Part shown: positions 124-15,947 of the stretch, piece by piece
Layout: each line of letters opens with the position of its first letter
How positions within the stretch are numbered: the first letter of the stretch is position 1
From: Kofleriaceae bacterium
GTDB lineage: Bacteria; Myxococcota_A; Polyangia; Haliangiales; Haliangiaceae
Reading direction: 5' to 3'
Length of the DNA: 15,947 bases
NCBI GenBank assembly: GCA_046597055.1
Contig: JBKJLC010000291.1
Location: forward strand, 1-15,947
Translations under genes and position numbers: made by a program
The notes under the pieces: model-generated
Database searches by the model: none
The model's input: the letters and a program-made list of their open reading frames with translations, nothing else
Told to the model about the DNA's origin: nothing

Positions 124-1503
124 TCAGGGCAGGTAGAAGACGCCTCGCAGGTCCTCGGTGCGCGAGATCTCTTCCGCTGGATCTTTGATCGAGCGCGCGC
201 GGAACTGGTAGTACATGCCGCTCTGGAGTGCCGGGCCCGCGTAGGGGACCGCGAGATCGTTGCTGCCGCCCGGCACCGATTGCTGCCAGACGATGGTCCC
301 GAACGCGTCGAAGACCGTCAGCTCGTAGCGATCCTCCGACGAGTCGTCGACCCAGCGCAGGGTCGGGTTCGCGGTGACCGCTTCGGGACCGTTCGCGCCC
401 GGGCCGAGGATCTCGAGGGCGCCGGTGACCTTGAAGCTCTGCGAGAGCATCACGTTCTGTCCGGCGGCGATCTCCTGATGGACGATGTCGGTGCCGCCGA
501 TGCTGGAGGCATCCCGCACCAGCAGATCGTTCTCGAACGCCGCCAGCACCACGTAGCGGCCGGCCGGGATGCCGCTGATCAGGAATGCGCCGCCGACATC
601 GGGCGCGCGCAGACCGGCCGGCGCCTCACCGCGGGCCAGCTCCTGGTTGAACGTCGACTCCACCACGAGGATGACCGAGGTCGCGTTGCCCGTCCCCCCG
701 TTCACGATCTGGACCGAGCCCGAGAGCGTCGACGTGGCGGCGGGATCCACCGCGAGGTCGACGTTGGCATCTTGCCCCACGGTGAGACTGGTCGTGCCCG
801 TCGCGTAGTTGTGGCCCTGCGCGTAGGCTCGGACCGAGTAGTCGCCGGGGGCCAAGTTCAGGATCTTGTAGTCACCATCGCGATCCGCGATGGCGGAGAA
901 CCCCTTGAGGCTGCTCGACGCGCTCGAGCTCTCCGCGACGACCAGCACGCTCGCGCCCGTCGCGTTCGCGGCAACCTTGCCGTGGATAGCAGCCGTGTTC
1001 GAGCCAGTCGCCATCACGATCAAGCCGACGTCGGTGAGCGCGCTGCTGATGACGTAGGCGCCGTCCGTCAGAGTCGGGCTCGAGGTGTCGATGGGGAGCG
1101 CCAGACGGATCCCGGACGGGAAGGTCAGGTACCCGCCGGCGTCGGCGCGGAGCGTGATGGTTCGCGCTCCAGAGGCCAGCGACCCATCGGGATGGCGGGT
1201 CGTGGCGAGCGCGAGCCGATAGCTGCCGTCGGTCTCCGAGACGGACACCGAGCTCGCTGCCGCGTTGTTTGCATCGAGCGCGACCACACGTGCGCCGGCG
1301 ACCGCGCCGTCGTCTCCGAGATCGAAGACGCGGCCTTCGACCACCACCGGGGCGAAGCAGGCGGGCTCGCCGCCTTCGACCACCTCACAGGCAAGGCCGT
1401 CGTCGCACCCAGCGTTTCCGATCGGATCGCACGGCCCCGCGTCACTCCCGCAGGCGGTGGACCACGCCGCCATGGTCGCCAAGGCAAACTTTAGATTCGA
1501 CAT
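124..1503 (-). CDS. Lipoprotein with a Cys-rich N-terminus, carboxypeptidase-regulatory-like (beta-sandwich) repeats and an FN3-like C-terminal domain, 459 aa
   Basis: Start moved to ATG 1503 (MSNLKFALATMAAWSTAC-GSD), which gives a signal peptide ending in a lipobox-like TAC. Cys cluster CDPIGNAGCDDGLACEVVEGGEPAC. Repeated motifs VEGRVFD..GARVVA..DGSYRL, IHGKV..DGDYKILNLAPGDYSVRA and LSGSV..FLISGIPAGRYVV. C-terminal PTLRW..YELTV..LQSGMYYQFRARS. Confidence 0.8.
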   Translation of the reverse strand: MSNLKFALATMAAWSTACGSDAGPCDPIGNAGCDDGLACEVVEGGEPACFAPVVVEGRVFDLGDDGAVAGARVVALDANNAAASSVSVSETDGSYRLALATTRHPDGSLASGARTITLRADAGGYLTFPSGIRLALPIDTSSPTLTDGAYVISSALTDVGLIVMATGSNTAAIHGKVAANATGASVLVVAESSSASSSLKGFSAIADRDGDYKILNLAPGDYSVRAYAQGHNYATGTTSLTVGQDANVDLAVDPAATSTLSGSVQIVNGGTGNATSVILVVESTFNQELARGEAPAGLRAPDVGGAFLISGIPAGRYVVLAAFENDLLVRDASSIGGTDIVHQEIAAGQNVMLSQSFKVTGALEILGPGANGPEAVTANPTLRWVDDSSEDRYELTVFDAFGTIVWQQSVPGGSNDLAVPYAGPALQSGMYYQFRARSIKDPAEEISRTEDLRGVFYLP

Positions 1504-1790
1504 GTCACGTTGGTGTCCCCGGACCTGGGCGTGGTCGCAGATATCGACCGGCGTATACGATTTACAACGCCCTGCGCAGCGCGCGGCGCGGCGGAGGTAG
1601 GTGCAGAGGCTACGGTGGTCGACTTCGCAGCAGCGCCGAGTGGCGATCGGCGAGCCACCGGGCGGCATCCTCGGCGTCCGCGGGCGCCTCCCTGGCGACC
1701 GAATGCGCCGGCTCGAGGCATCGCCGCGGCGCCCGATGATTCGCCGGGTTCCGCGGCGACGGCGCGGCCCGGCGGGACGTACGATTCGGC

Positions 1791-3728
1791 ATGCACTCGC
1801 CCGCGGCTCGCCGCCTCGTCGTGATCGCCGGCCTCGTGATCGCGTGCCTCGCCGCGCCCCACGCGGCGGCCGATGAACAGCGCGCCTGGGTGCCCGCGAT
1901 CCCCGATGCCGCGACCTGGAAACGCTACTCGAAGACGCTCAATGCCGACCAGTTCGGCAAGTGCATCATCGACGTCAAGTCCGACGACATCTACTTCATC
2001 GACGTCAACCTGTTCAACCTTCACGCCGACTTCGTCCTCGGCGTGCTGCTGAAGCAGGCGTGGACCCGCGACAACATCATCGAGTACAACAAGAACTACG
2101 AGCGGGTGAAGCCGCGTTTCATCCTCTGCTACGTCACCCACCACACCAAGGTGGACCGCTGGACGTTCGCGTTCTGGGAGGGTGACAAGATCGACGCCGC
2201 CGGGGTCCTGCGGGTCAAGAAGAAGCTCGACCAGACGTTCTTCGGGGCCAAGAACCTCGCGTTTCGGCCCGACTCGCCGATGCAGGAGCAGGTCGCCAGG
2301 GACGTCGCCCGGAAAGGCACCAAGACGACGACCAACGACCAGCTGTACAAGGAAGCTGATTTTCAGGCGTTCAACCGGGGGCGCGCGGTCGGGACGCTGC
2401 GGGTGGTCCCGGTCGGAACGCCGTATGACTCGGTCGTCTTTGCGGCGACCGACATCGCGCTGCTCCAGGAGAGCTACCCGGACATCTCGCGGGTGTCGGG
2501 CATCCTGGCCACCGAGTTCTCCACGCCGCTGTCGCACGTCAACCTGCGCGCGACCGCGTGGGGCATCCCCAACGCCGGCGACAAGAAGGCGCGCGCCAAG
2601 TGGGGCGCGCTCGACGGCAAGGTCATCTCCTACGAGGTCACCGACGCCGGCGCCACCGTGCGCGAGGCGACCACGAAGGAGATCGCCGCGCTCGAGGCGA
2701 GCGTGAAGCAGCAACGCCACGTCGACCTCCCGAAGGCGAACATCGACGATCCGAAGCTGCCGATGCTGACGCGGATCCGCGCCAAGGACGTCGTCACCTA
2801 CGGAGCCAAGACCGCGAACCTCGGTGAGATGCGCACCGCGAATCTGCCCGGCGTGCGCATCCCCGACGGCTTCGGCGTGCCGTTCTTCTACTACCTCCGT
2901 CACCTGCGCCAGCACGGCCTCGACAAGCAGATCGAGTCGATGCTCGACGACCCGCGCTTCGCGACCGACCTCGCCTGGCGCAAGCAGGCCCTCGCCCAGA
3001 TGCGGACGGCGATCGTCGAGGCGCCGCTCGATCCGGTCGTGCTCGACATGATCTACAAGCGCGTCCGCCTCAAGCTCGGGGGCAAGGGCGTGTTCGTGCG
3101 GTCCTCGACCAACGCCGAGGACCTGCCGCGGTTCAACGGCGCGGGCCTGTATGACACGGTGCCGAACGTGCGCGGCAAGCAGGCGCTCGGCGACGCCATC
3201 CGGTACGTCTGGGGTTCGGTCTGGAATCTGCGCGCCGTGGACGAGCGCACCGCGGCCGGGATCGATCACCGCCAGGTATATGCCGCCGTGATGATCCAGG
3301 TCGGTGTCAGCGCGACCGCAGCCGGGGTGCTCGTGACCAAGAACCTGTGGGACCCGAACGACGACGACGGTTACACGATCAACGCCAAGTGGGGCCTGGG
3401 CATGCGCGTCGTGGAGGGCCAGAAGGTCCCCGAGCAGATCATCTTCGACGCGAGCAACGATGGCACCAAGATCATCAGCCGATCCGACGACCCGGTGATG
3501 CTCGTCTTCGACGAGAAGGGCGGCATCAAGCAGGTGCCGACGCCCGATGGCGGGGTGATCCTCTCCGAGGCGCGCGCCAAGCGACTGGTCGACGCCGCCC
3601 GGCAGATCCTCCCGCTGTTCCCGCCGGGCGTACCGCTCGACATCGAGTGGGTGCTCGAAGGCGAGACGATCTGGATCGTCCAGGCCCGGCCGTACATCAT
3701 CGGGGCCGCCGCGGGCGCGTCGCGCTAG
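1791..3728 (+). CDS. Exported PEP/pyruvate-binding (PPDK_N ATP-grasp) protein with an upstream phospho-His swivel domain; dikinase-like, 645 aa
   Basis: N-terminal signal peptide (RR-LVVIAGLVIACLAAPHAAA). His motif TPLSH249VNLRATAWGIPN. ATP-grasp motifs YGAKTANLGEM, IPDGFGVP, VRSSTNAEDLPRFNGAGLYDT, SATAAGV and DIEW..WIVQARP. No C-terminal PEP-binding TIM barrel. Confidence 0.85.
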   Translation: MHSPAARRLVVIAGLVIACLAAPHAAADEQRAWVPAIPDAATWKRYSKTLNADQFGKCIIDVKSDDIYFIDVNLFNLHADFVLGVLLKQAWTRDNIIEYNKNYERVKPRFILCYVTHHTKVDRWTFAFWEGDKIDAAGVLRVKKKLDQTFFGAKNLAFRPDSPMQEQVARDVARKGTKTTTNDQLYKEADFQAFNRGRAVGTLRVVPVGTPYDSVVFAATDIALLQESYPDISRVSGILATEFSTPLSHVNLRATAWGIPNAGDKKARAKWGALDGKVISYEVTDAGATVREATTKEIAALEASVKQQRHVDLPKANIDDPKLPMLTRIRAKDVVTYGAKTANLGEMRTANLPGVRIPDGFGVPFFYYLRHLRQHGLDKQIESMLDDPRFATDLAWRKQALAQMRTAIVEAPLDPVVLDMIYKRVRLKLGGKGVFVRSSTNAEDLPRFNGAGLYDTVPNVRGKQALGDAIRYVWGSVWNLRAVDERTAAGIDHRQVYAAVMIQVGVSATAAGVLVTKNLWDPNDDDGYTINAKWGLGMRVVEGQKVPEQIIFDASNDGTKIISRSDDPVMLVFDEKGGIKQVPTPDGGVILSEARAKRLVDAARQILPLFPPGVPLDIEWVLEGETIWIVQARPYIIGAAAGASR

Positions 3729-5086: not shown

Positions 5087-5680
5087 TCAGTCGGGGCAGG
5101 GCGCGCCGGCGGCGGCCCAGGTCTCCCACGCGGCGACGAACGCTGCGTGGGGCGTCGGGACCGGGGTGCGGCCGAAGCCGGGGTTCCAGCCCCAGACGAC
5201 CAGCGGATCGTCGAGGTGGACGCGCAGCGCCGCCATGTCCTTGCCGCCATTGCGGTCCGGATCCTTGATCTGCTCGCACAGCGCCCTCGGCGCGACACCG
5301 ACGAAGACCAGGCGCTCCTCGGGCTTGGGCATGTGCCAGACCGTGGCGACGCCGGGCGGGGTGTGCTCGCCGTAGCTGTCAGGCGGATTGACCGGGCCGT
5401 GGCAGGTGGTGCATTCGGCGCCGACCATGCCGAACCCGGCCGGGCCGCGCATGACGTTCTGGTTGTGCAGGCGACCCTCGTCGCCCTGCAGGGGCACGTC
5501 GCCGGCAGGGTGGCAGTTCTGGCAGCGCGGGTGCTGGAGCACCGAGCGCACGGTCTCGAACGCGACCAGCGCGGGCTGGTCACGGCTGCCAGCGCCGGGG
5601 GAGGGGGTGGACGCGCGGCGGTCGCCGCACGCGGCGAGGACGAGCGTCAGGGACGCGAAGAGCAAGCCAGTTCGGATCAT
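5087..5680 (-). CDS. Diheme c-type cytochrome lipoprotein associated with an IorAB-type oxidoreductase, 197 aa
   Basis: Lipobox LAAC. Two heme-binding motifs, HPRCQNCH and CTTCH. Starts 10 bp downstream of the iorB-like stop codon on the same strand. Confidence 0.85.
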
Positions 5681-5690
5681 GGGCGAGGAC

Positions 5691-7826
5691 CTATGCGAGG
5701 CGGAGCGGAAGCGTGCGGAGGCGCTGCTTGGTCAGCGCGAAGACGGCGTTGGCGACCGCCGGTGCGATCGGTGCGGTGGCCGGCTCGCCGATGCCGCCCA
5801 TCGCGGCCTTGCTCGGGATCACGTGGACGTCGATGCGCGGCATCTCGTACATGCGCAGCGCCGGGTAGTCGTGGAAGTTGCTCTCCTGGACCCGGCCGTC
5901 CTTGAGCGTGAGCTTGCCGTGGAGCGCGGCAGTCAAGCCGAACGCGACGCTGCCCTGGACCTGGGCCTCGAGCCCGAGCGGGTTGACCGCGGTGCCGCAG
6001 TCGACCGCGCAGGTCACGGCGTGGACCCGGATGCGCCCCTGCTCGACCGAGACCTCCGCGACCTCGGCGATGATGGTGCCGAACGACTCGTGCACCGCGA
6101 GGCCGCGCGCGCGCCCGGCCGGCGGCGGCGTCCCCCAGCCGGCCTTGTCGGCGGCGAGCTTCAGCGCGGCGGCGTGGCGGGGCTTGCCCTTCAGCAGGGC
6201 CAGCCGGTACGCGAGCGGGTCCTGCTTCGCGGCATGGGCGAGCTCGTCGATCATGCTCTCCATCGCAAAGGCGGTGTGGGTGTTGCCGACCGACCGCCAC
6301 CACAGGACGGTGATCGGCGTCTTCGGTGAGTGCAGCGAGACCCGCCGCGCCGGCGTCTCCTCGAGGTACGGCGAGTCGGCCAGGCCCTCGACCGAGGTGC
6401 CATCGACGCCGTTGCGCACCGCGAACGCCTCGAACGGCGTGCCGGTGAGGATCGACTGGCCGACCACGACGTGGTCCCACGCGACCGGCAGGCCGCGGGC
6501 ATCGACCCCGACCTGGATGCGGTGCACGTAGGCGGGGCGGTAGAAGCCGCCGCGCATGTCGTCCTCGCGGGTCCAGATCACCTTGACCGGCACCCCGGCG
6601 GCCTTGGCGACGATGACCGCCTCCGACACGAAGTCGGCGGCCGGGTTGGCGCGCCGGCCGAACCCACCGCCCAGGAAGGTGGTGTGCAGCGTGACGTGGT
6701 CGGGCGGGATGCCGAGGATCTTCGCGGCGACCATCTGATCGACCGTCTGGAACTGGGTGCCGGTCCAGATCTCGCACCGATCGCCGTCGATCTTGACCGT
6801 GCAGTTGAGCGGCTCCATCGGCGCGTGGGCGAGGTACGGGACGTCGTACTCGGCCTCGTGGCGCGCGGCCGCCGCGGTCATGGCGGTGTCGATCTTGCCG
6901 ACGTCGGCGACGATCGCGCCCGGCTTCCGGGCCTGGGCGCGGAAGTCGACCAGCAGCGCGGCGGTGTCGATGCCGCCGCCGTCGGGGTCGCCCCATTCGA
7001 CCACCAGCGCGTCGCGGCCGAGCTTGGCGGCCCAGAAGTGCGCGGCGATCACGGCGACGCCGTTGGCGGTCGGCACCACCTGCTCGACGCCGGCGATCTG
7101 CAGCGCCGCGGCGGCGTCGAACTTGACCAGCTTGGCGCCGAACGCGGGCGGCCGCAGCACCACCGCGGTGCGCAGGCCGGGGAACTGGACGTCGATGCCG
7201 AACACCGCCTTGCCGGTGATCTTCTCGGGGGTATCGAGCCGGCGGACCCTGGTGCCGATCAGCTTCCAGGCGCTGGGATCCTTCAGCGACACCGACCTCG
7301 GTGGCGCCAGCTTCATGGCGGCGGCCGCGAGCTGCCCGTACGACAGCTCGCCCTTGGGATGGCGGACCACGCCGCCCTCGGCCTTGCAGCGCAGCGGCGA
7401 CACCTTCCAGCGCGCGGCCGCGGCGCGCACCAGCATGTCGCGCGCCATCGCGCCGACGGTGCGGTAGCGCTCGAACTCGCCGTTGGTGGTCGACGAGCCG
7501 CCGGTCATCTGGAGCTGCATCGCGGGATGGCCGTAGACCGGGGCCGCCGGCGCGTGCTCGCAGCGGACCCGGGACCAGTCGCACTCGAGCTCCTCGGCGA
7601 TCAGCATCGCGAGGCCGGTCCAGATGCCCTGGCCCATCTCGGAGTGGGCGAGCACGACCGTCACCGACTCGTCGGCGCCGATCCGCACGAACGCGTTGGG
7701 CGTGAGGGTCGGGCCGGCCGGGGCCCTGGGGGCCGCGCGCACGCCGGCCGGAACGTAGAAGCTGATGGCCAGGCCCGCGGCCGAGCCGGCCGACACCTGC
7801 AGGAAGCCACGGCGCGAGACGGTCAC
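5691..7826 (-). CDS. iorB: Xanthine oxidase family molybdopterin-binding large subunit (isoquinoline 1-oxidoreductase beta-like) with Tat signal, 711 aa
   Basis: True start is GTG 7826, which overlaps the iorA stop (GTGA). Tat motif SRRGFLQ. Family motifs [34 protein letters not shown] and catalytic GIGEP. The substrate cannot be determined from sequence. Confidence 0.92.
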
Positions 7827-8284
7827 TTGCCACCTCGCTTCAGCCGCGACGCCAGGTGGATGGCCTCGCGCACGCGGACGTAGGTGCCGCAGCGGCAGAT
7901 GTTGCCCGACAGCGCGGCGTCGATCTCGGCGTCGGTCGGGTCGGGCTTGCGCTCGAGCAGCGCGACCGCGGTCATGATCTGGCCGGACTGACAGTAGCCG
8001 CACTGGACCACGTCGGCCTCGGCCCAGGCCCGCTGGACCGGGTGCGCGCCGTCGGGGGACAGCCCCTCGATGGTCGTCACCTTGCGCGTGCCCACGGTCG
8101 CGACCGGGGTGACGCAGGCGCGGACCGGCTGACCGTCGAGGTGGATCGTGCACGCGCCGCACTGGGCCATGCCGCACCCGTACTTGGTGCCGGGCAGGCC
8201 GAGCAGGTCGCGCAGCACCCACAGGAGCGGCATGTCCGGCGACGCCTCGACCTCGCGAATCGATCCATTGATGTCGAGTTTCAT
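7823..8284 (-). CDS. iorA: Small subunit with two [2Fe-2S] clusters (isoquinoline 1-oxidoreductase alpha / CoxS-like), 153 aa
   Basis: Motifs [37 protein letters not shown] and GNICRCGTY. Confidence 0.95.
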
Positions 8285-8406
8285 GTCCAGTGGGTACGTT
8301 CCGCTCGGGTCGGGGCGCGGTCAAGGCTCGGGCCCAGGAAGCCGTGTTGCGAAGTGTTGCGATCGTCGCTCGGGCCCTGATCAGCGGGTAGAGTCGGCGC
8401 GATCGC

Positions 8407-10080
8407 ATGAACGAGCTCGAGCGGATCGCGCGCGAAAGTGCCGCGCTGGTGGCGGCCGGGTCGCCGTTCTTGCTGGCGACCGTGGTGCGCGTGTCGGGCT
8501 CGTCATACCGGCGCCCGGGCGCGCGCATGCTGGTCGCCGGCGAGCGCTGGCTGGCCGGGTGCGTCAGCGGCGGCTGCCTCGAGGGCGACGTGATGCTGCG
8601 CGGCGGGTTCCGCTGTCGCGACGGGCCGGTGGTGGTCACCTACGACTCGACCAGCGACGACGACGCCCCGTGGAGCGTCGGGCTCGGGTGCAACGGCATC
8701 GTCGAGGTGCTGCTCGAGCACGTCGCGGCCGGCGCCGATCACGACGCGCTGCGGTTTGCCCGCGGCTGCTTCGCCGGCGAGGTCGCTGGCACGCTGGTGA
8801 CGGTGATCGGCTCGACCCGCGCGACCGTCCCGGTCGGGGCGCGACTCGCGATCGGCCCCGACTGCGAGCTGACCCAGCCGGTGCGCGACCCTGCCGTGGC
8901 GGCTGCGCTCGCGCAGGCCGCACGCGGGCCGGTCGGCGTGGTCGAGCTCGCCGGGCTCGGCATCACCGCGCTGGTCGAGGCGATCACGCCGTCGCCGCAG
9001 CTGTTCGTGCTCGGCAGTGGCCACGACGCGGCGCCGATCGTGGCGCTGGCGCAGTCGGTCGGGTTCCGGGTCACGGTCGCCGATCACGCGATCCGCGAGG
9101 GCTCGCGGTTCCTCGCCGCCGACCGGATGATCTCGACCGCCGGCGCGACCGATCGGCTCGGCGCGCTGGTCGATGCCGCCGCCGAGGCCTACGTCGTGAT
9201 CATGCACCACCAGATCGGCGCCGATCGCGACGCGCTGGCGATGGCGATGGCGTCGCGGGCTCGCTACATCGGGGTGCTGGGGCCGGCGCGCCGCACGCAC
9301 GATCTCCTGGCCGAGCTTGGCCGGCGGCCCGGCGACGATCCGCGGCTGCACGCGCCGATCGGGCTGGACGTCGGCGCCGAGACCCCCGAGCAGATCGCGC
9401 TCGCGATCGTCGGCGAGCTGCAGGCGGTCACCCGCCAGGCCCGCGGCGGCAAGCTGCGCGACCGGATCCGCGCGGTGCACGCCGAGGTCGCCACGGTGGT
9501 GCTGGCCGCCGGGGGCTCGCGTCGGCTGGGCCGGCCCAAGCAGCTGGTCGAGCTCGACGGACAGACGCTGGTGAGCCGGGTCGCCGCGGCGTGCGTCGCG
9601 ACCCGGGCCGGGCCGGTCGCGGTCGTGCTCGGCGCCGGCGCGGCCGAGATCGCGCGCGCGCTCGGCGAGCTGCCGGTCGCGCCGCTGATCAACGAGGCCT
9701 GGCACGACGGCATCGCGTCGTCGATCCGGGCCGCGGTGCGCTGGGCCGAGACCACCCGCGCCGGTGCGCTGCTGATCACGCTGGCGGATCAGCCGCTGCT
9801 CACGGCCGCGCACCTCACCGCGCTGCGCGACGCATGGCTGGCCGGCGCGCCGATCGCCGCCTCGCGCTGGGACGGCACCGTCGGCGCGCCCGCGGTGTTC
9901 GACCGCGCGCGCTGGCCCGAGCTGGCGCGGCTCGAGGGCGATCAGGGCGCGGCCCGGCTGGTCCGCGGCGACGACGTGGTCGCGATCGACTGGGCCGGTG
10001 GGGCGGTCGACGTCGACACCCCCGACGACGTGCGCGCGCTGGGCGCGCGCCAGGATGACGTCGGTCGTCCCGAGCGCTAG
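8407..10080 (+). CDS. xdhC: Fusion of an XdhC/CoxI-family Moco chaperone and a MocA-type molybdenum cofactor cytidylyltransferase, 557 aa
   Basis: XdhC part: ATVVRVSGSSYRRPGARML, VSGGCLEGD, GLGCNG, VLGSGHDA, YIGVLGP and APIGLDVGAETPEQIALAIVGEL. From about aa 360, nucleotidyltransferase motifs: VVLAAGGSRRLGRPKQL, GIASSI, LADQP, GDQGA and DVDTPDD. No stop codon between the two parts. Confidence 0.9.
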   Translation: MNELERIARESAALVAAGSPFLLATVVRVSGSSYRRPGARMLVAGERWLAGCVSGGCLEGDVMLRGGFRCRDGPVVVTYDSTSDDDAPWSVGLGCNGIVEVLLEHVAAGADHDALRFARGCFAGEVAGTLVTVIGSTRATVPVGARLAIGPDCELTQPVRDPAVAAALAQAARGPVGVVELAGLGITALVEAITPSPQLFVLGSGHDAAPIVALAQSVGFRVTVADHAIREGSRFLAADRMISTAGATDRLGALVDAAAEAYVVIMHHQIGADRDALAMAMASRARYIGVLGPARRTHDLLAELGRRPGDDPRLHAPIGLDVGAETPEQIALAIVGELQAVTRQARGGKLRDRIRAVHAEVATVVLAAGGSRRLGRPKQLVELDGQTLVSRVAAACVATRAGPVAVVLGAGAAEIARALGELPVAPLINEAWHDGIASSIRAAVRWAETTRAGALLITLADQPLLTAAHLTALRDAWLAGAPIAASRWDGTVGAPAVFDRARWPELARLEGDQGAARLVRGDDVVAIDWAGGAVDVDTPDDVRALGARQDDVGRPER

Positions 10081-11440: not shown

Positions 11441-12571
11441 ATGACCCGCGATCCCGTGTCCGCGCGCATCGTCGAGGAGGCGCTGCGCGCCGCCGCTGCC
11501 CGCCGCCTGCCTGCCGAGGCGCTGGGCGGCGCGACGTTGACCGCCGCCGTGGTCGAACGATCGCGCCGCTACACCAGCGATCGCGCGCGCCTGGCCGCGC
11601 CGGCCGGCGCCGCCGACCTCGCCGCGCGCGCGCTGTTCTTCACGATCGCCGATGCCAGCAAGGTGCACCTGCCCCTGGCCGAGCTGCACGGCGGGGCGTT
11701 GCCGGCGCCGACCGGCTTCCTGGCCGGGCCCGCGCTCGCGGTCCTCGACGTCGGCGCGGGCTGCGGGGCGATGACGCTGGGGCTCTTGACCTACCTGGCC
11801 GGCGCCGGCCTGCGCCCGCGGATCACGGCGACGCTGGTCGATCGCGACGGCGCCGCGCTGGCGATCGCGGCCGATGCGATCGCGGCGGTCGCGGCCGGGC
11901 TCGGGCTGACGGCGATCGTCACGACCCGCACGGCCGACGTCGCGACGCTGACCGCACGCGACCAGGATCTGGTCCTCGCCGGGTCGGTCCTGAACGAGCT
12001 CGCCGACCACGGCGCGCGCACGACGCTCGCGGCCCGGCTGGTCGCGATGCTCGCACCGACCGGCGTCGCGATCGTGGTCGAGCCCGCGCTGCGCGAGACC
12101 ACGCGCGCCCTGCACGCGGTGCGCGACGCGCTGATCGCGGCCGGCACCGCGATGGTGCTGGCGCCGTGCACCCGCCGGGACGCGCCGTGCCCGGCGCTGG
12201 CCGACGAGCGCGACTGGTGTCACGACCACCGGCCGGCGGTGTTGCCGCCGCGGGCCCGACAGCTCGCCACCGTCACCGGCCTGCGCGACGGCGACCTCAA
12301 GCTGGCGTACCTCGCGCTCGCCCATCCGGGCGCGGCGCCGGCGTCGCGTGCGTACCGCGTGGTCGCCGATCCGCAGGCGCTCAAGGGCAAGCACGAGCTG
12401 CTGCTGTGCGGCGCGCCAGGGTGGGTGCCGATCCGCCTGCTGCGCCGCCACCGCGCGGACGGCAACCGCGCGCTCGAGCGGGCCCACCGCGGCGACCTGC
12501 TGACGATCATGCCGGCGCCGGCGGGCGACGTCGGTCCCGACGCCGTGGTCACCGTTGCGCGCGTCGATTGA
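11441..12571 (+). CDS. Rsm22/METTL17-like class I SAM-dependent methyltransferase, 376 aa
   Basis: SAM motif [10 protein letters not shown], then [17 protein letters not shown] and [13 protein letters not shown]. Cys region [20 protein letters not shown]. Confidence 0.8.
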
Positions 12572-12629
12572 GCTCGTCGTCCGCACCAAGGATGCGTACG
12601 ACAGGTCACGTCGCGAGCGCTGCCAGAAC

Positions 12630-12824
12630 CAGCTCGATGGCTCACACGAGCGCGCTTATGGCGGCGTCGGCCTCGGCCGCGCGCTGTTCAAGCGCCTGAC
12701 CGGCCTGCTCGGCGGCACGGTCGCGGTCGAGAGCGTGCTCGGGGTCGGCTCGACCTTCCCGGTCGATCTGCCAACCCGGCTCGCGCTGGCCACCAGCGAC
12801 GACCGCCGCGCCCCGACCGGCTGA
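12630..12824 (+). pseudogene. Remnant of a histidine kinase (C-terminal half of HATPase_c only)
   Basis: [48 protein letters not shown] matches the G2 box and the final strands. No H-box, N-box or intact G1 box upstream, and no convincing start codon. Confidence 0.7.
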
Positions 12825-12844: not shown

Positions 12845-14527
12845 TCAGAGCCGGCCGGCGACGACCAAGCCGCCGCCCCGGCGGTCGATCCACGGAGCGA
12901 TCTGCAGGCTGCGGCGCGCGGTGTTGGCGGTGCCGGGCTCGCCGCGGCGCAGGCGCGCGCGCAGGTCGCGGTTGTAGTCGGCGGCGAGCTCGCTCAGGAC
13001 GTGGGGCGGGGGCCGCCGGGTCGGCGTGAACTTGCCGATCAAGAGGATGCCGGTGCCGACCAGCGCGGCGGTGACGCCGATCTTCATCGCCGTGCCCTTG
13101 CGATGGAGGCAGGGGCTGAAGTCGGGGTCATAGACGTCCGGATCGCAGCGCTCGCCGGCGACCGCGTAGACGAAGCCGCCGACCGCGACGACGCCCCCGC
13201 CAACCATCATGATCTGACGCTGGAGCCGCCGCGCCTCCATTTGCTTTGCAAGGTCGACGCGGCCAGTGAGGCGGAGGAAGACCTCGGTGTCCAGCTTGCG
13301 CCGGTAGACGCCCTGGTAGACCTCGTTGACGCTCGCCAGCTTCGCCGACTGGTGCGGGCCCTGTTCGAGGACCAGCGTGCCGCCGACGGTCAGGTGCAGG
13401 CGGTCCCACTCGGCCTGGGCCGCGGGCGGCAGCGGCGCCTCGTCGTCGCGGGTGTCGGGTACCGGCGTCGTGCCCTTGCCGGCGACCCGGGCCGGCGCCA
13501 CCGTCGTCAGCGTCGACCAGCTGACGTCGGTCACCCCGCCGGCGTAGGCGGTGACGCGCCCGGCAACCTGGTCGGTGCCCTTCCACAGCCGGATCGCGTA
13601 GTCGCCCGGGGCGACCGCGATCGTGCGCACCTGATCGCGCGTGAGCTCCGCGATGATCTGATCGCGGCGGACGTGCACCAGCAGCGCGCGGGTGAAGCCG
13701 GCCGGCAGGCGCACGGTCGCGTTGCGAGTACCGACCTCGGTCAGCACCAGCTCGCCGCGACCCGACAGGCGGTAGTCGTAGTTGGGATGTTGCGGCTCGA
13801 GGCCGACCGCGGAGCTCGACGACACGGTGCGGTTGAACGCGTAGTCGTACCCCTCTGACAGCGTGACCCGTCCGTCGCCGGAGGCGTCGGCCGCGCCGCG
13901 CAACCCGCTGACCAGGTGGTGGGTGAAGAACGAGCCCCGGATCTCGTTCGATTCGAGCGCGGCCTCGTTGGCCGCGCTCGAGGTGAGCATCGCCTCGCCG
14001 CGGGTGGCCAGCTCGTCGGCGAGCCCGATCTCGAACGACGGGCCTGGGCTGCCGCCCTTGGTCTGGACCAGGTGGCCGCTCTTGCAGCCGTCGACCACGG
14101 CGACCCGCACGTCGGCGCCGCTGGCGGCCAGCCGGGCCTTGAGCTCGGCGTAGGTGAACAGCTGGCCGCCCAGCTCGAGCGCCTGCTCGTTCGAGTGTCC
14201 CGAGTAGAAGAAGAGCAGGATGACGCGGTCGTCGGGTGCGGCGCGGACCGCCTTCACCGCGCGGGTGGCGCGGGCGAGCGCGTCCTCGACCGCCGCCCGG
14301 TTCTTGCCCTGGACCAGGAACAGGTTGGCGGCGTCGACGTCGCCGAGGTCGATCAACACGTCGGCGAACTTGCCGGCGTCGTCCTCGGCAAACCGGAGCG
14401 GCGTCTGGGTGGCGCCGCCGGTGTTGTGCCCGACCACGACCGCGACCCGGCGGGTCTCGGCATGGGCGCGGGTGGCGACGGTGGTGACGGTGGCGAAGGC
14501 GAGGGCGGCGAGCAGCGTGCGGCTCAT
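12845..14527 (-). CDS. Exported caspase-family (Peptidase C14, ortho/metacaspase-like) protease with C-terminal accessory domains, 560 aa
   Basis: True start is ATG 14527, overlapping the upstream stop (ATGA). Signal peptide MSRTLLAALAFATVTTVATRAHA. Motifs RRVAVVVGHN and LRFAEDDA, catalytic dyad FFYSGH111 and VVDGC148KSG, and p10-like GSFFTHHLVSGLRGAAD..QHP. Confidence 0.9.
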   Translation of the reverse strand: MSRTLLAALAFATVTTVATRAHAETRRVAVVVGHNTGGATQTPLRFAEDDAGKFADVLIDLGDVDAANLFLVQGKNRAAVEDALARATRAVKAVRAAPDDRVILLFFYSGHSNEQALELGGQLFTYAELKARLAASGADVRVAVVDGCKSGHLVQTKGGSPGPSFEIGLADELATRGEAMLTSSAANEAALESNEIRGSFFTHHLVSGLRGAADASGDGRVTLSEGYDYAFNRTVSSSSAVGLEPQHPNYDYRLSGRGELVLTEVGTRNATVRLPAGFTRALLVHVRRDQIIAELTRDQVRTIAVAPGDYAIRLWKGTDQVAGRVTAYAGGVTDVSWSTLTTVAPARVAGKGTTPVPDTRDDEAPLPPAAQAEWDRLHLTVGGTLVLEQGPHQSAKLASVNEVYQGVYRRKLDTEVFLRLTGRVDLAKQMEARRLQRQIMMVGGGVVAVGGFVYAVAGERCDPDVYDPDFSPCLHRKGTAMKIGVTAALVGTGILLIGKFTPTRRPPPHVLSELAADYNRDLRARLRRGEPGTANTARRSLQIAPWIDRRGGGLVVAGRL

Positions 14528-15444
14528 GGGGTCGTGCGTTTCTGGGCGTCGGCGAGCGGACGCTTGGTCAGGTGGAACACGAGCGGGACCGCGCCGGGCA
14601 TCGCGAGCGCGCCGACCTGCGCGCGCCCGGGCTGGGCCCGCGCGTCGGTCGCGGTGAGGGCGTCGGCGAGCGTGAGCGGTTGGTCGGTGAGGAAGACGTA
14701 GAGCGCCTCGGCCCCGGGCACGTCGTCGAGCACGACGCTGTCGGCGAGCTCGACCGCGGTGCCCGGCGCCAGCGGCGCCGACTGGTCGCCGCCGAACGGG
14801 TAGTACACCGTGTGCACGCCGGCCCCGTCGCGCGAGACGATCAGCACGTGGCGCGCGCCAGCCGGCTCGATCACGAAACGCAGGGCGTCGCCGGGCGCGA
14901 CCTCGGCGCCGTCGGCCAGCTGCCAGATCCGATCGCCGCGCCGGGCGTGGACCTGCACCGAGCGGCCGCCCTTGTAGGCGACGGTGTCGGGGGTGGCGGT
15001 GCCCGCGCTCGCGCTCTCGAGCGGCCTGACGTGCGGCACCGGGGCGCGCGCCCCGGTGCGCGGGTCGTGCGCCGTGGCCAGCGGCTCGTGCGCCGACGTG
15101 GTCGGGCGGTGAGACGGGCGCACCACCACGAGCACGATCGCGACCGCCGCGAACGCGAGCACCGGCAGGACCAGCCGGGGCGGGAACCACCCCGTCAGCC
15201 ACGACTCGTTGGCGCTGGCGCGCTCGCGGATCGCCGGCAGCGTCCGGGGCAGCACCACCAGCTCGAACTGGCGGGCGACCGCGCGCGCCTGCTCGATCAG
15301 CGCGCGGCAGCGCGCACAGCGCTCGGTGTGCTCGCGCACCAGGGGCGGGATCGGATCGGCCACCAGCAGGCTGGCGACCTCGAGCTCGGTGAGGTGCTCG
15401 TCGGAGGCGCCGCTGATCGGGTGGTCGCGGGTGACGCCGCTCAT
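14524..15444 (-). CDS. Single-pass membrane zinc-binding anti-sigma factor (ZAS/zf-HC2) with an extracytoplasmic DUF4384-like domain, 306 aa
   Basis: Start ATG 15444 overlaps the sigma stop (ATGA). ZAS motif H17..H39xxxC43xxC46. TM helix LVLPVLAFAAVAIVLVVV, then a Pro/Thr/Ala linker. C-terminal GDALRFVIE..HVLIVSRDGAG..VYYP..LDDVPGAEALYVF. Confidence 0.8.
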   Translation of the reverse strand: MSGVTRDHPISGASDEHLTELEVASLLVADPIPPLVREHTERCARCRALIEQARAVARQFELVVLPRTLPAIRERASANESWLTGWFPPRLVLPVLAFAAVAIVLVVVRPSHRPTTSAHEPLATAHDPRTGARAPVPHVRPLESASAGTATPDTVAYKGGRSVQVHARRGDRIWQLADGAEVAPGDALRFVIEPAGARHVLIVSRDGAGVHTVYYPFGGDQSAPLAPGTAVELADSVVLDDVPGAEALYVFLTDQPLTLADALTATDARAQPGRAQVGALAMPGAVPLVFHLTKRPLADAQKRTTP

Positions 15445-15920
15445 GCTGCCGCTCTCGCCGCGAACTTGCGCGAGTTGGCCGCGAACGCCGCCAGCTTGTT
15501 GACCACGGTGCGCCGCGACACGTCCATCACTCGTGCGACCTCGCCCTGGTCGAGGCCGTCGACGTGGTGCAGCCACGCGATCGCGCGCTGATCTTCGGGG
15601 GCGCGCGCGATGAGCTGGACCACCAGATCGCGATCGCCGGGGTCGACGCCGACCGTACCGGTGTCGGGGATCTCGGCGACCGGGGTCGGTCGGTGCTTGC
15701 TGTTGCGCAGCTCGTTCAGGCAGTAGTTGGTCGCGATCCGCCAGATCCAGCGGATCGCCTCGTCGGCCGGCGGGGCGCGATCGAGGTGACGGAGCACGCG
15801 CATGAAGGTCTCCTGAGTCGCATCCTCGGCCGCGGCACGATCACCGAGCAGCCGGACGCACCGCCAGTAGATGGCGGGCCCGTACGAACGGTACAGGGCA
15901 GTGAGGCGATCGTCGTTCAA
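15441..15920 (-). CDS. ECF-subfamily sigma-70 factor, about 159 aa
   Basis: Region 2: LYRSYGPAIYWRC..AAEDATQETF..WIWRIATNYCLNELR. Region 4: DGLDQGEVARVMDVSRRTVVNKL. TTG 15920 has GGGAG 8 nt upstream. TTG 15935 or a start beyond the window edge is also possible. Confidence 0.92.
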   Translation of the reverse strand: MNDDRLTALYRSYGPAIYWRCVRLLGDRAAAEDATQETFMRVLRHLDRAPPADEAIRWIWRIATNYCLNELRNSKHRPTPVAEIPDTGTVGVDPGDRDLVVQLIARAPEDQRAIAWLHHVDGLDQGEVARVMDVSRRTVVNKLAAFAANSRKFAARAAA

Positions 15921-15947
15921 GGTGCGAGCTCCCAACCCCGGCGCAGG

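Follow-up and report, generated by a model that had tools for sequence, protein, structure and literature searches.

We analyzed a 15,947-nucleotide stretch of DNA from a Kofleriaceae bacterium (assembly GCA_046597055.1, contig JBKJLC010000291.1; referred to here as the window), in which three genes on the minus strand encode a sigma factor of the extracytoplasmic function (ECF) type, a candidate anti-sigma factor, and an exported C14 caspase-like protease. We consider it fairly probable that the exported caspase is a dedicated site-1 protease that cuts its own anti-sigma factor after Lys158, a reading in which we infer all of the proteolytic steps. As the original prediction made from this sequence had described, the genes share one strand and are joined by two ATGA stop/start overlaps, which we read at 15441-15444 (sigma/anti-sigma) and 14524-14527 (anti-sigma/caspase). 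No terminator-like site was found 3' of the caspase gene. The genome has a G+C content of 72%, and the closest named relatives are records labeled Myxococcota and "Deltaproteobacteria." In the order of the operon, the genes are as follows:

15441..15920, minus strand: ECF sigma factor, TTG start, 159 amino acids (Sigma70_r2, r4_2, TIGR02937)
14524..15444, minus strand: candidate anti-sigma factor, 306 amino acids, with a zinc-binding anti-sigma (ZAS)-type N-terminal domain, one transmembrane (TM) helix, a disordered linker, and an immunoglobulin (Ig)-like DUF4384-type domain
12845..14527, minus strand: exported C14 caspase-like protease, 560 amino acids (Peptidase_C14)

The anti-sigma factor and the caspase share a Lys/Arg-Gly motif, which is a candidate cleavage site common to the linkers of both proteins and occurs at three places:

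14968..14973, minus strand: anti-sigma Lys158-Gly159, where the disordered linker ends, a candidate for the site-1 cut
14054..14059, minus strand: caspase Lys157-Gly158, nine residues past the catalytic Cys, a candidate for self-cleavage
13472..13477, minus strand: caspase Lys351-Gly352, ahead of the C-terminal anchor, a candidate site for release

The conservation of these sites was counted in 167 nonredundant anti-sigma/caspase pairs (170 minus 3 identical ones, with the window counted once). Position 158 of the anti-sigma factor was Lys in 160 and Arg in 6 of the 167 sequences, and it was followed by Gly in 156. In the caspase, position 157 was Lys in 163 and Arg in 2 of 167, with Gly at position 158 in all 167, and position 351 was Lys in 123 and Arg in 40 of 164, with Gly at position 352 in 162 of 164. 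Most of the flanking positions varied, and each of the three sites lay within a low-confidence segment of the structure models or at its end. The predicted local distance difference test score of the anti-sigma model was below 50 at residues 145 to 157, with the first strand at residue 162, while the two caspase sites were surrounded by a low-confidence loop (residues 150 to 176) and a low-confidence segment (residues 347 to 360). The anti-sigma motif was also kept in 12 of 12 readable members of a clade with a permuted gene order, whose sequences are divergent and were used in none of the profiles. It was absent before the domain in three of three stand-alone DUF4384 lipoproteins (L205 to L207) and before all four tandem DUF4384-like copies of the protein P0134 and, thus, is not required by the fold.

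An invariant P1-like Lys would suit an inhibitor as well as a substrate, and the Ig-like domain has conserved residues of its own (D186, D206, D240, E246, and K294). The motif and the domain together might therefore act as a pseudo-substrate in the active site of the caspase, with signaling by binding and release, as in FecA/FecR, and little or no cutting. A precedent would be PCi, an inhibitor of PCaspase that also undergoes cleavage, from a sigma/caspase locus of a myxobacterium (10.1101/2023.06.23.546230). We regard such an inhibitor as rather unlikely: the motif occupies a disordered linker that joins the membrane to a folded domain, the usual location of a site-1 cut, and all aligned caspases that span the catalytic dyad have it intact.

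The shared motif and the acidic S1 pocket of the caspase lend indirect support to the idea of a site-1 protease. The parts of the caspase are the following:

14459..14527, minus strand: predicted Sec signal peptide, residues 1 to 23, with a basic N-region, a hydrophobic core, and A21-H-A23
13736..14452, minus strand: caspase domain with the His111/Cys148 dyad and the invariant acidic residues Asp50, Asp146, and Glu192
13499..13720, minus strand: beta-sandwich after the caspase domain, residues 270 to 343 (structure model)
12848..13450, minus strand: C-terminal membrane-type region, with two Gly-rich hydrophobic helices that flank a Cys pair and with a beta-hairpin at the end

The protein matched Peptidase_C14 (PF00656) above the cutoff (E value of 2e-11), while the EACC1-associated caspase model NF047832 gave 60.2 bits, below its curated cutoff of 140. 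A Foldseek search with the caspase model returned MALT1, the yeast metacaspase Yca1, and caspases as the best matches, and MALT1 was the first structural match for the caspase-plus-Ig arrangement. D50, H111, D146, and C148 were invariant in both sets of aligned caspases (82/82 and 89/89). The enzyme thus has the features of a C14B orthocaspase or metacaspase, namely, a caspase-hemoglobinase fold, a His-Cys dyad, and an acidic S1 pocket with two aspartates. In the alignment, D50 and D146 correspond to the pair of metacaspase aspartates that makes room for a basic residue at P1 (PMC6426788), and characterized non-caspase C14 members cleave after Arg or Lys (PMC5756287). Because this acidic pocket is invariant and aligned with the metacaspase aspartates, the caspase is predicted to be specific for Arg and Lys.

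The signal peptide was judged from the sequence pattern alone. Among the 167 relatives of the caspase, a hydrophobic core was present in 159 and an AxA motif in 132, and in the mature part (residues 24 to 345) the catalytic Cys was the sole cysteine in 164. This pattern suggests that the caspase is exported. The C-terminal tails were variable in type and nearly always membrane-like: the 135 complete tails fell into one group of 94 (about 170 amino acids), two longer groups of 20 and 7, 4 tails of the type found in the window, and 10 scattered ones. A tail of the majority type (94/135) resembled OMP_b-brl clusters with a score of 0.94, which suggests that the tail is usually an anchor that looks like an outer-membrane barrel. 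The tail in the window has the terminal hairpin only, and its nearest named families scored 0.79 to 0.81, too low to count; the Cys pair between the Gly-rich helices was present in 14 of 14 sequences with a tail of this type. A small outer-membrane barrel with N-terminal domains has an established topology that places those domains in the periplasm, so the caspase would stay there. The original prediction placed the caspase in the external compartment of the anti-sigma factor and reported a signal peptide and the His111/Cys148 dyad. The dyad holds, and the export pattern fits the shared compartment, but the caspase is probably anchored in a membrane through its C terminus rather than freely soluble; the membrane-type region and the promoter described below had been overlooked. 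Tails of about 380 amino acids in L141, L147, and 18 similar loci contain short Gly-rich repeats followed by a barrel-like end, which suggests a surface-exposed sensing domain.

The two other proteins have the architecture of an ECF sigma factor and its membrane-bound inhibitor. The sigma factor is a short protein with regions 2 and 4 only, as expected of group 4, and it matched Sigma70_r2 (E value of 4e-15), r4_2 (E value of 6e-7), and TIGR02937 (68.3 bits; cutoff of 42.9), all above the cutoffs. The features of the anti-sigma factor, apart from the Lys-Gly site, are as follows:

15307..15396, minus strand: zinc-binding motif H17...H39xxxC43xxC46 (conserved residues)
15121..15177, minus strand: TM helix, residues 90 to 108 (89 to 108 in the model), with a mean hydropathy of 2.79
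14563..14961, minus strand: periplasmic Ig-like beta-sandwich (DUF4384-like), residues 162 to 294 (structure model and domain matches of relatives)

With modeled N-terminal helices at residues 20 to 28, 34 to 42, and 44 to 86, a zinc motif, and a gene adjoining that of the sigma factor, the protein falls within ZAS class I, and we regard it as a candidate ZAS inhibitor of this sigma factor, with both zinc binding and inhibition being predictions. The zinc motif, the single TM segment, and the external domain of the earlier description were all recovered. The motif was well conserved in close relatives (H17 in 74, H39 in 78, and C43 and C46 each in 79 of 82), while the zinc cysteines were kept in just 46 of 90 more distant ones. 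A single TM segment was present in 159 of 167 relatives. The match of the anti-sigma factor of the window itself to DUF4384 was weak and below the cutoff (E value of 0.042); among 78 aligned relatives, at an E value of 0.01 or lower, 52 matched DUF4384 and 33 matched zf-HC2. A fold search gave only generic Ig-like folds (best Z score of 8.0). None of the 78 members matched a TPR or CHAT domain, and a search for anti-sigma factors in longer, fused form found none, which is weak evidence. P0134 is an anti-sigma-like protein of 758 amino acids in which the N-terminal domain occurs twice and a DUF4384-like domain four times in tandem.

The original prediction expected the trio to recur in myxobacteria and named a lack of conservation across genomes as the outcome that would speak against it; what we found was one of the tightest gene associations that we measured. 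In a caspase-centered set of 80 loci from a species-genome collection, the complete ordered trio was present at 69, while 4 loci were cut by a contig end and 7 lacked the partners. A second set of 80 metagenome loci contained 49 trios, 12 anti-sigma/caspase pairs with the sigma gene cut off, 3 loci lacking the sigma gene, 11 with too little upstream DNA, and 5 without an anti-sigma gene. We also assembled 90 anti-sigma-centered loci, consisting of the 30 best matches (window included) and 60 picked from the listed matches down to an E value of 1e-28, with 513 weaker matches lying outside this sample. The caspase gene was directly downstream in 89 of these 90 loci, and the sigma gene was upstream in 88, the other two being cut off. 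Among 301 genomes sampled from the phylum, some of them kin and, therefore, nonindependent, 113 carried both the anti-sigma factor (E value of ≤1e-15) and the caspase (E value of ≤1e-30), 3 carried the anti-sigma factor only, 3 carried the caspase only, and 182 carried neither. The 116 genomes with the caspase had up to several paralogues each, in a patchy distribution. The anti-sigma profile matched 2,524 clusters (50% identity) at an E value of ≤1e-30. A single-sequence search for anti-sigma loci found none. No relatives of the caspase were found in viral contigs with the patterns used.

A sister clade of caspases (L011 to L023) was considered as a group of orphans and rejected, since the sigma and anti-sigma genes are present in permuted order. 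In 14 of 15 refetched loci of this clade, the order was caspase, usually a Cys-rich lipoprotein, sigma, and anti-sigma. The genome of the window carries a broken second module of the permuted type without a sigma gene (G000:C288:11435-12460), in which a frameshifted N-terminal part of the caspase is followed by an anti-sigma fragment with the Lys-Gly motif and the Ig-like domain; upstream, on the opposite strand, is a gene for a Cys-rich lipoprotein.

The operon is preceded by a predicted promoter, part of which lies in the window:

15929..15939, minus strand: predicted -10 box GGGGTT with an adjacent GGGAG ribosome-binding site (promoter motif)

The -35 box TTGCGCA is 14 nucleotides upstream, just past the window, on contig C116 of the same genome (117-nucleotide overlap). 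The motif TTGCGCA-N14-SGGGTT scored above 11 bits upstream of 72 of the 161 sigma genes on whose upstream sequences it was trained, compared with 0 to 6 in five shuffles. The upstream region of the window was outside the training set, and its site (21.8 bits) was the second best among the 57 sites above 16 bits in its genome. With that many sites, the noise of a genome-wide scan is too high for the regulon of this genome to be defined from it. Across all fetched loci, 139 sites of at least 17 bits preceded an open reading frame (ORF), of which 79 were in front of sigma genes, 4 in front of caspase genes, 1 in front of an anti-sigma gene, and 55 in front of other genes. The last group represented 43 distinct genes, 24 of them lipoprotein-like and 10 with other exported or membrane-like products; the background, 409 lipoprotein-like ORFs of 3,503 in the genome of the window, was obtained with a simple rule and differs from the background of the 43. 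A domain scan covered 29 of the motif-preceded genes, whose products had Ig-like, beta-propeller, lectin, or RHS domains or none that is known. Three of the four caspase sites precede the true starts of orphan caspases. L223, L224, and L226 are close relatives of the caspase in the window and have the sigma promoter 22 to 23 nucleotides before their starts, and the L223 and L224 caspases stand without a sigma or anti-sigma gene.

Promoter-like sites in the same genome that we regard as leads only were located before a membrane protein of about 200 amino acids (G000:C115:16619, minus strand, 21.9 bits), a repeat-rich lipoprotein of 1,033 amino acids (C77:26763, minus strand, 16.5 bits), and a small membrane protein (C16:18737, minus strand, 17.7 bits). 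Within the window, positions 124-1668 (minus strand) encode a lipoprotein-like product that has Ig domains of the carboxypeptidase-regulatory-like type; several predicted members of the regulon are genes of this kind.

The orphan caspases open another explanation, in which the caspase is merely an output of the regulon that processes or sheds envelope proteins and the anti-sigma Lys-Gly motif is a bait for another Lys/Arg protease, for example, that of a competitor or prey. The lipoprotein-rich regulon would offer possible substrates, and such baiting, being independent of a complex, requires no coevolution of the two proteins. Covariation of the P3 residues between the anti-sigma and caspase sites (odds ratio of 4.3, uncorrected) indeed vanished in independent pairs. 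Still, an output-and-bait arrangement appears unlikely to us, if a shade less so than the pseudo-substrate, since it does not account for the same motif at the p20/p10-type linker of the caspase itself and again before its anchor, or for partners that are almost never apart in 301 genomes and remain together through a change of gene order. A covariation with caspase positions 191 and 194, significant only without correction, was likewise lost in independent pairs and was rejected, and a complex prediction for caspase residues 24 to 345 and anti-sigma residues 145 to 298 scored 0.00 and was not used as evidence.

Several observations weigh against the caspase as dedicated site-1 protease. The missing P3 covariation is one of them, and the sigma promoters of the orphan caspases imply that the caspase is also a regulon output. 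The controls for the motif were few (three proteins and one repeat protein), and the anti-sigma profile was built from members of trios and, therefore, favors a high co-occurrence. Caspases without a neighboring anti-sigma gene do exist, as in the 7 species-genome and 5 metagenome loci mentioned above, and L200 and L209 are Lys-Gly anti-sigma factors without an adjacent caspase. The distance from the TM segment to the Lys had a median of 15 residues and a range of 7 to 49 (n = 165), and the linker in the window, at 49, is the longest; the case for release being necessary is therefore weakest in this copy. The C-terminal type of the window is also rare (4/135), and its location is only tentative. 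At L200 (G312:C116), the sigma gene and the Lys-Gly anti-sigma gene are followed by a Ser/Thr kinase-like gene, and a caspase is encoded elsewhere in that genome.

If the caspase is the site-1 protease, the system could operate as follows. At rest, the sigma factor would be held by the anti-sigma factor, and the caspase would be an inactive, tethered zymogen. A signal at the variable C-terminal domain would lead to self-cleavage of the caspase between K157 and G158, for activation, and between K351 and G352, for release from the anchor; this release is less certain than the cut in the anti-sigma factor, and we put it forward with some reservation. The caspase would then cut the anti-sigma factor between K158 and G159 and so remove the Ig-like domain, after which an RseP-type protease and cytoplasmic proteases would complete the degradation. 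The freed sigma factor would transcribe TTGCGCA-N14-SGGGTT promoters, including that of its own operon (positive feedback) and those of predicted surface lipoprotein genes. In the RseA/DegS/RseP pathway, the periplasmic part of a single-pass anti-sigma factor blocks RseP, and the trio resembles it in combining a single-pass anti-sigma factor that has a periplasmic domain with an RseP-type protease gene in the genome (an RseP-like M50 gene is present). The site-1 enzyme of RseA, however, is the serine protease DegS, which is shared across the cell. Cell-surface signaling by FecA/FecR/FecI also runs from an outer-membrane protein to a single-pass anti-sigma factor, but that outer-membrane partner is a TonB-dependent transporter and not a protease. 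A wider and more tentative proposal is a trans-envelope cascade, in which a receptor-zymogen in the outer membrane whose sensing domain can be swapped would cleave itself at two Lys-Gly sites, enter the periplasm, cut the motif of the anti-sigma factor, and induce surface lipoproteins. Such a cascade, leading from a receptor through a caspase to a transcription factor, would be unrelated to CRISPR or cell death and would extend over thousands of clusters, often with several copies per genome.

The closest studied system is DdvS/DdvA of Myxococcus xanthus, in which a myxobacterial ECF sigma factor is paired with a single-pass zinc anti-sigma factor and a periplasmic clan-CD His-Cys protease is proposed as the site-1 protease (PMC11506125). 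RseP degrades DdvA after removal of the periplasmic domain, while self-cleavage of DdvA is still a hypothesis and its signal is not known (PMC11506125). The protease of DdvA, a TPR-CHAT domain of about 900 amino acids with an incomplete active site, is part of the anti-sigma factor itself (PMC11506125), whereas in the trio the protease is a C14 enzyme of its own that carries a membrane-type anchor, and the anti-sigma factor, of 306 amino acids, has a small Ig-like domain. DdvS/DdvA controls an island with CRISPR and a cyclic oligonucleotide-based antiphage signaling system (CBASS) (PMC11506125), in contrast to the lipoproteins of the predicted regulon of the trio. No such island was seen among the recurrent neighbors and motif-preceded genes of the trio, with distant targets in the genome not excluded.

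The original prediction had instead drawn the parallel to Csx29/Csx30, which holds for the cleavage, predicted in the trio, of an anti-sigma factor by a caspase-fold protease but not as the closest known system. In these type III-E systems, Csx29 cuts the anti-sigma factor Csx30 in a linker and relieves an ECF-like autoregulating sigma factor (PMC10028731, 10.1101/2022.08.17.504292), and the C-terminal domains of Csx30 include one group that is DUF4384 (10.1101/2022.08.17.504292), as in the 52 of 78 relatives of the trio anti-sigma factor. Csx29 differs in being a CRISPR-linked TPR-CHAT protein that is activated by Cas7-11 with target RNA and cleaves after Met427, and a signal peptide or TM helix is not described for Csx29/Csx30 in the covered text (PMC10028731, 10.1101/2022.08.17.504292). 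No cas genes were found in the window or among the recurrent neighbors, which sets the trio apart from a Csx29/Csx30 locus. The SAVED-CHAT/PCaspase/PCi/PCc-sigma locus of Haliangium ochraceum likewise encodes a cleavage-activated myxobacterial C14 caspase with a sigma factor and an inhibitor; however, PCaspase depends for its activation on a second protease and on cyclic oligoadenylate, has broad specificity, cleaves the sigma factor itself, acts in abortive infection, and lacks a TM anti-sigma factor (10.1101/2023.06.23.546230). The SAVED-CHAT activator and the kinase of that cascade are absent from the window and the recurrent neighbors. Orthocaspases and metacaspases (C14B) and MALT1 share with the trio caspase the fold, the dyad, the acidic pocket, and the caspase-plus-Ig arrangement but not the signal peptide, the membrane-type tail, or the dedicated anti-sigma partner. 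The module would work like DdvS/DdvA, Csx29/Csx30, and PCaspase but lacks their defining features, and it is a variant of protease-gated ECF signaling.

Every studied pair of a sigma factor and a clan-CD protease is linked to defense, and the patchy occurrence of the module, with as many as several paralogues in one genome, would also suit a device for phage defense or cell death, whose activated caspase would kill the cell or arrest it in the manner of PCaspase or the islands controlled by DdvA. We consider this improbable, well behind the inhibitor and bait explanations: no defense or CRISPR genes were found among the recurrent neighbors, which are housekeeping or of unknown function, or among the motif-preceded genes, with only weak PADLOC hits, and the protease is exported. 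The independence of the module from CRISPR that was assumed at the outset agrees with these results.

The operon itself was already in print. Asplund-Samuelsson (2012) reported that, of the five metacaspases of M. xanthus, four are encoded in operons with sigma-70 factors, and that similar operons occur in Anaeromyxobacter, Haliangium, Sorangium, Ralstonia, and Fibrobacter (PMC3501461). These probably belong to the same family as the trio, and the text covered names no anti-sigma factor, export, anchor, cleavage site, or mechanism (PMC3501461). ECF54 and EACC2 systems link ECF sigma factors to caspase-like genes without an anti-sigma factor of the trio type (PMC8999054, PMC8195603), and the supplement of Casas-Pastor (2021) lists DUF4384 anti-sigma factors under ECF25, with no word "caspase" in the part covered. 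A literature search found no paper on the mechanism of the trio, with most subscription papers, the act-operon papers, and part of the ECF reclassification supplement outside its reach; this agrees with the earlier statement that no mechanistic description was known. The act operon of M. xanthus (ActD) reportedly has a link to caspase homologues, on which the literature search found nothing and which may bear on novelty.

Elsewhere in the window, positions 1791-3728 (plus strand) encode a PPDK_N protein (phosphoenolpyruvate/pyruvate binding, ATP-grasp) with an apparent N-terminal signal peptide, which is unusual for the family. A short ORF at 12555-12824 (plus strand), between an Rsm22-like methyltransferase gene and the caspase gene, looks by eye like a C-terminal fragment of a histidine kinase. 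Positions 5087-10080 hold a molybdenum hydroxylase-like cluster:

5087-5680: heme-motif protein
frame of ORF 5691-8639: probable large subunit
7823-8284: 2Fe-2S subunit
8407-10080: divergent XdhC/MobA-like fusion

To our knowledge, a natural substrate has been established for only a few bacterial relatives of caspases. The trio would give a bacterial caspase a defined one, with a named bond (K158-G159) and two candidate self-cleavage sites. Because the enzyme is separate, the bonds are named, and a promoter is available for a reporter, point mutants and purified domains would suffice to test the proposal, even with no knowledge of the signal. Synthetic biology could also make use of a compact protease-gated sigma switch. 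Overall, with 2,524 clusters and the caspase in 116 of 301 genomes, the module may be a main route of envelope signaling in myxobacteria.

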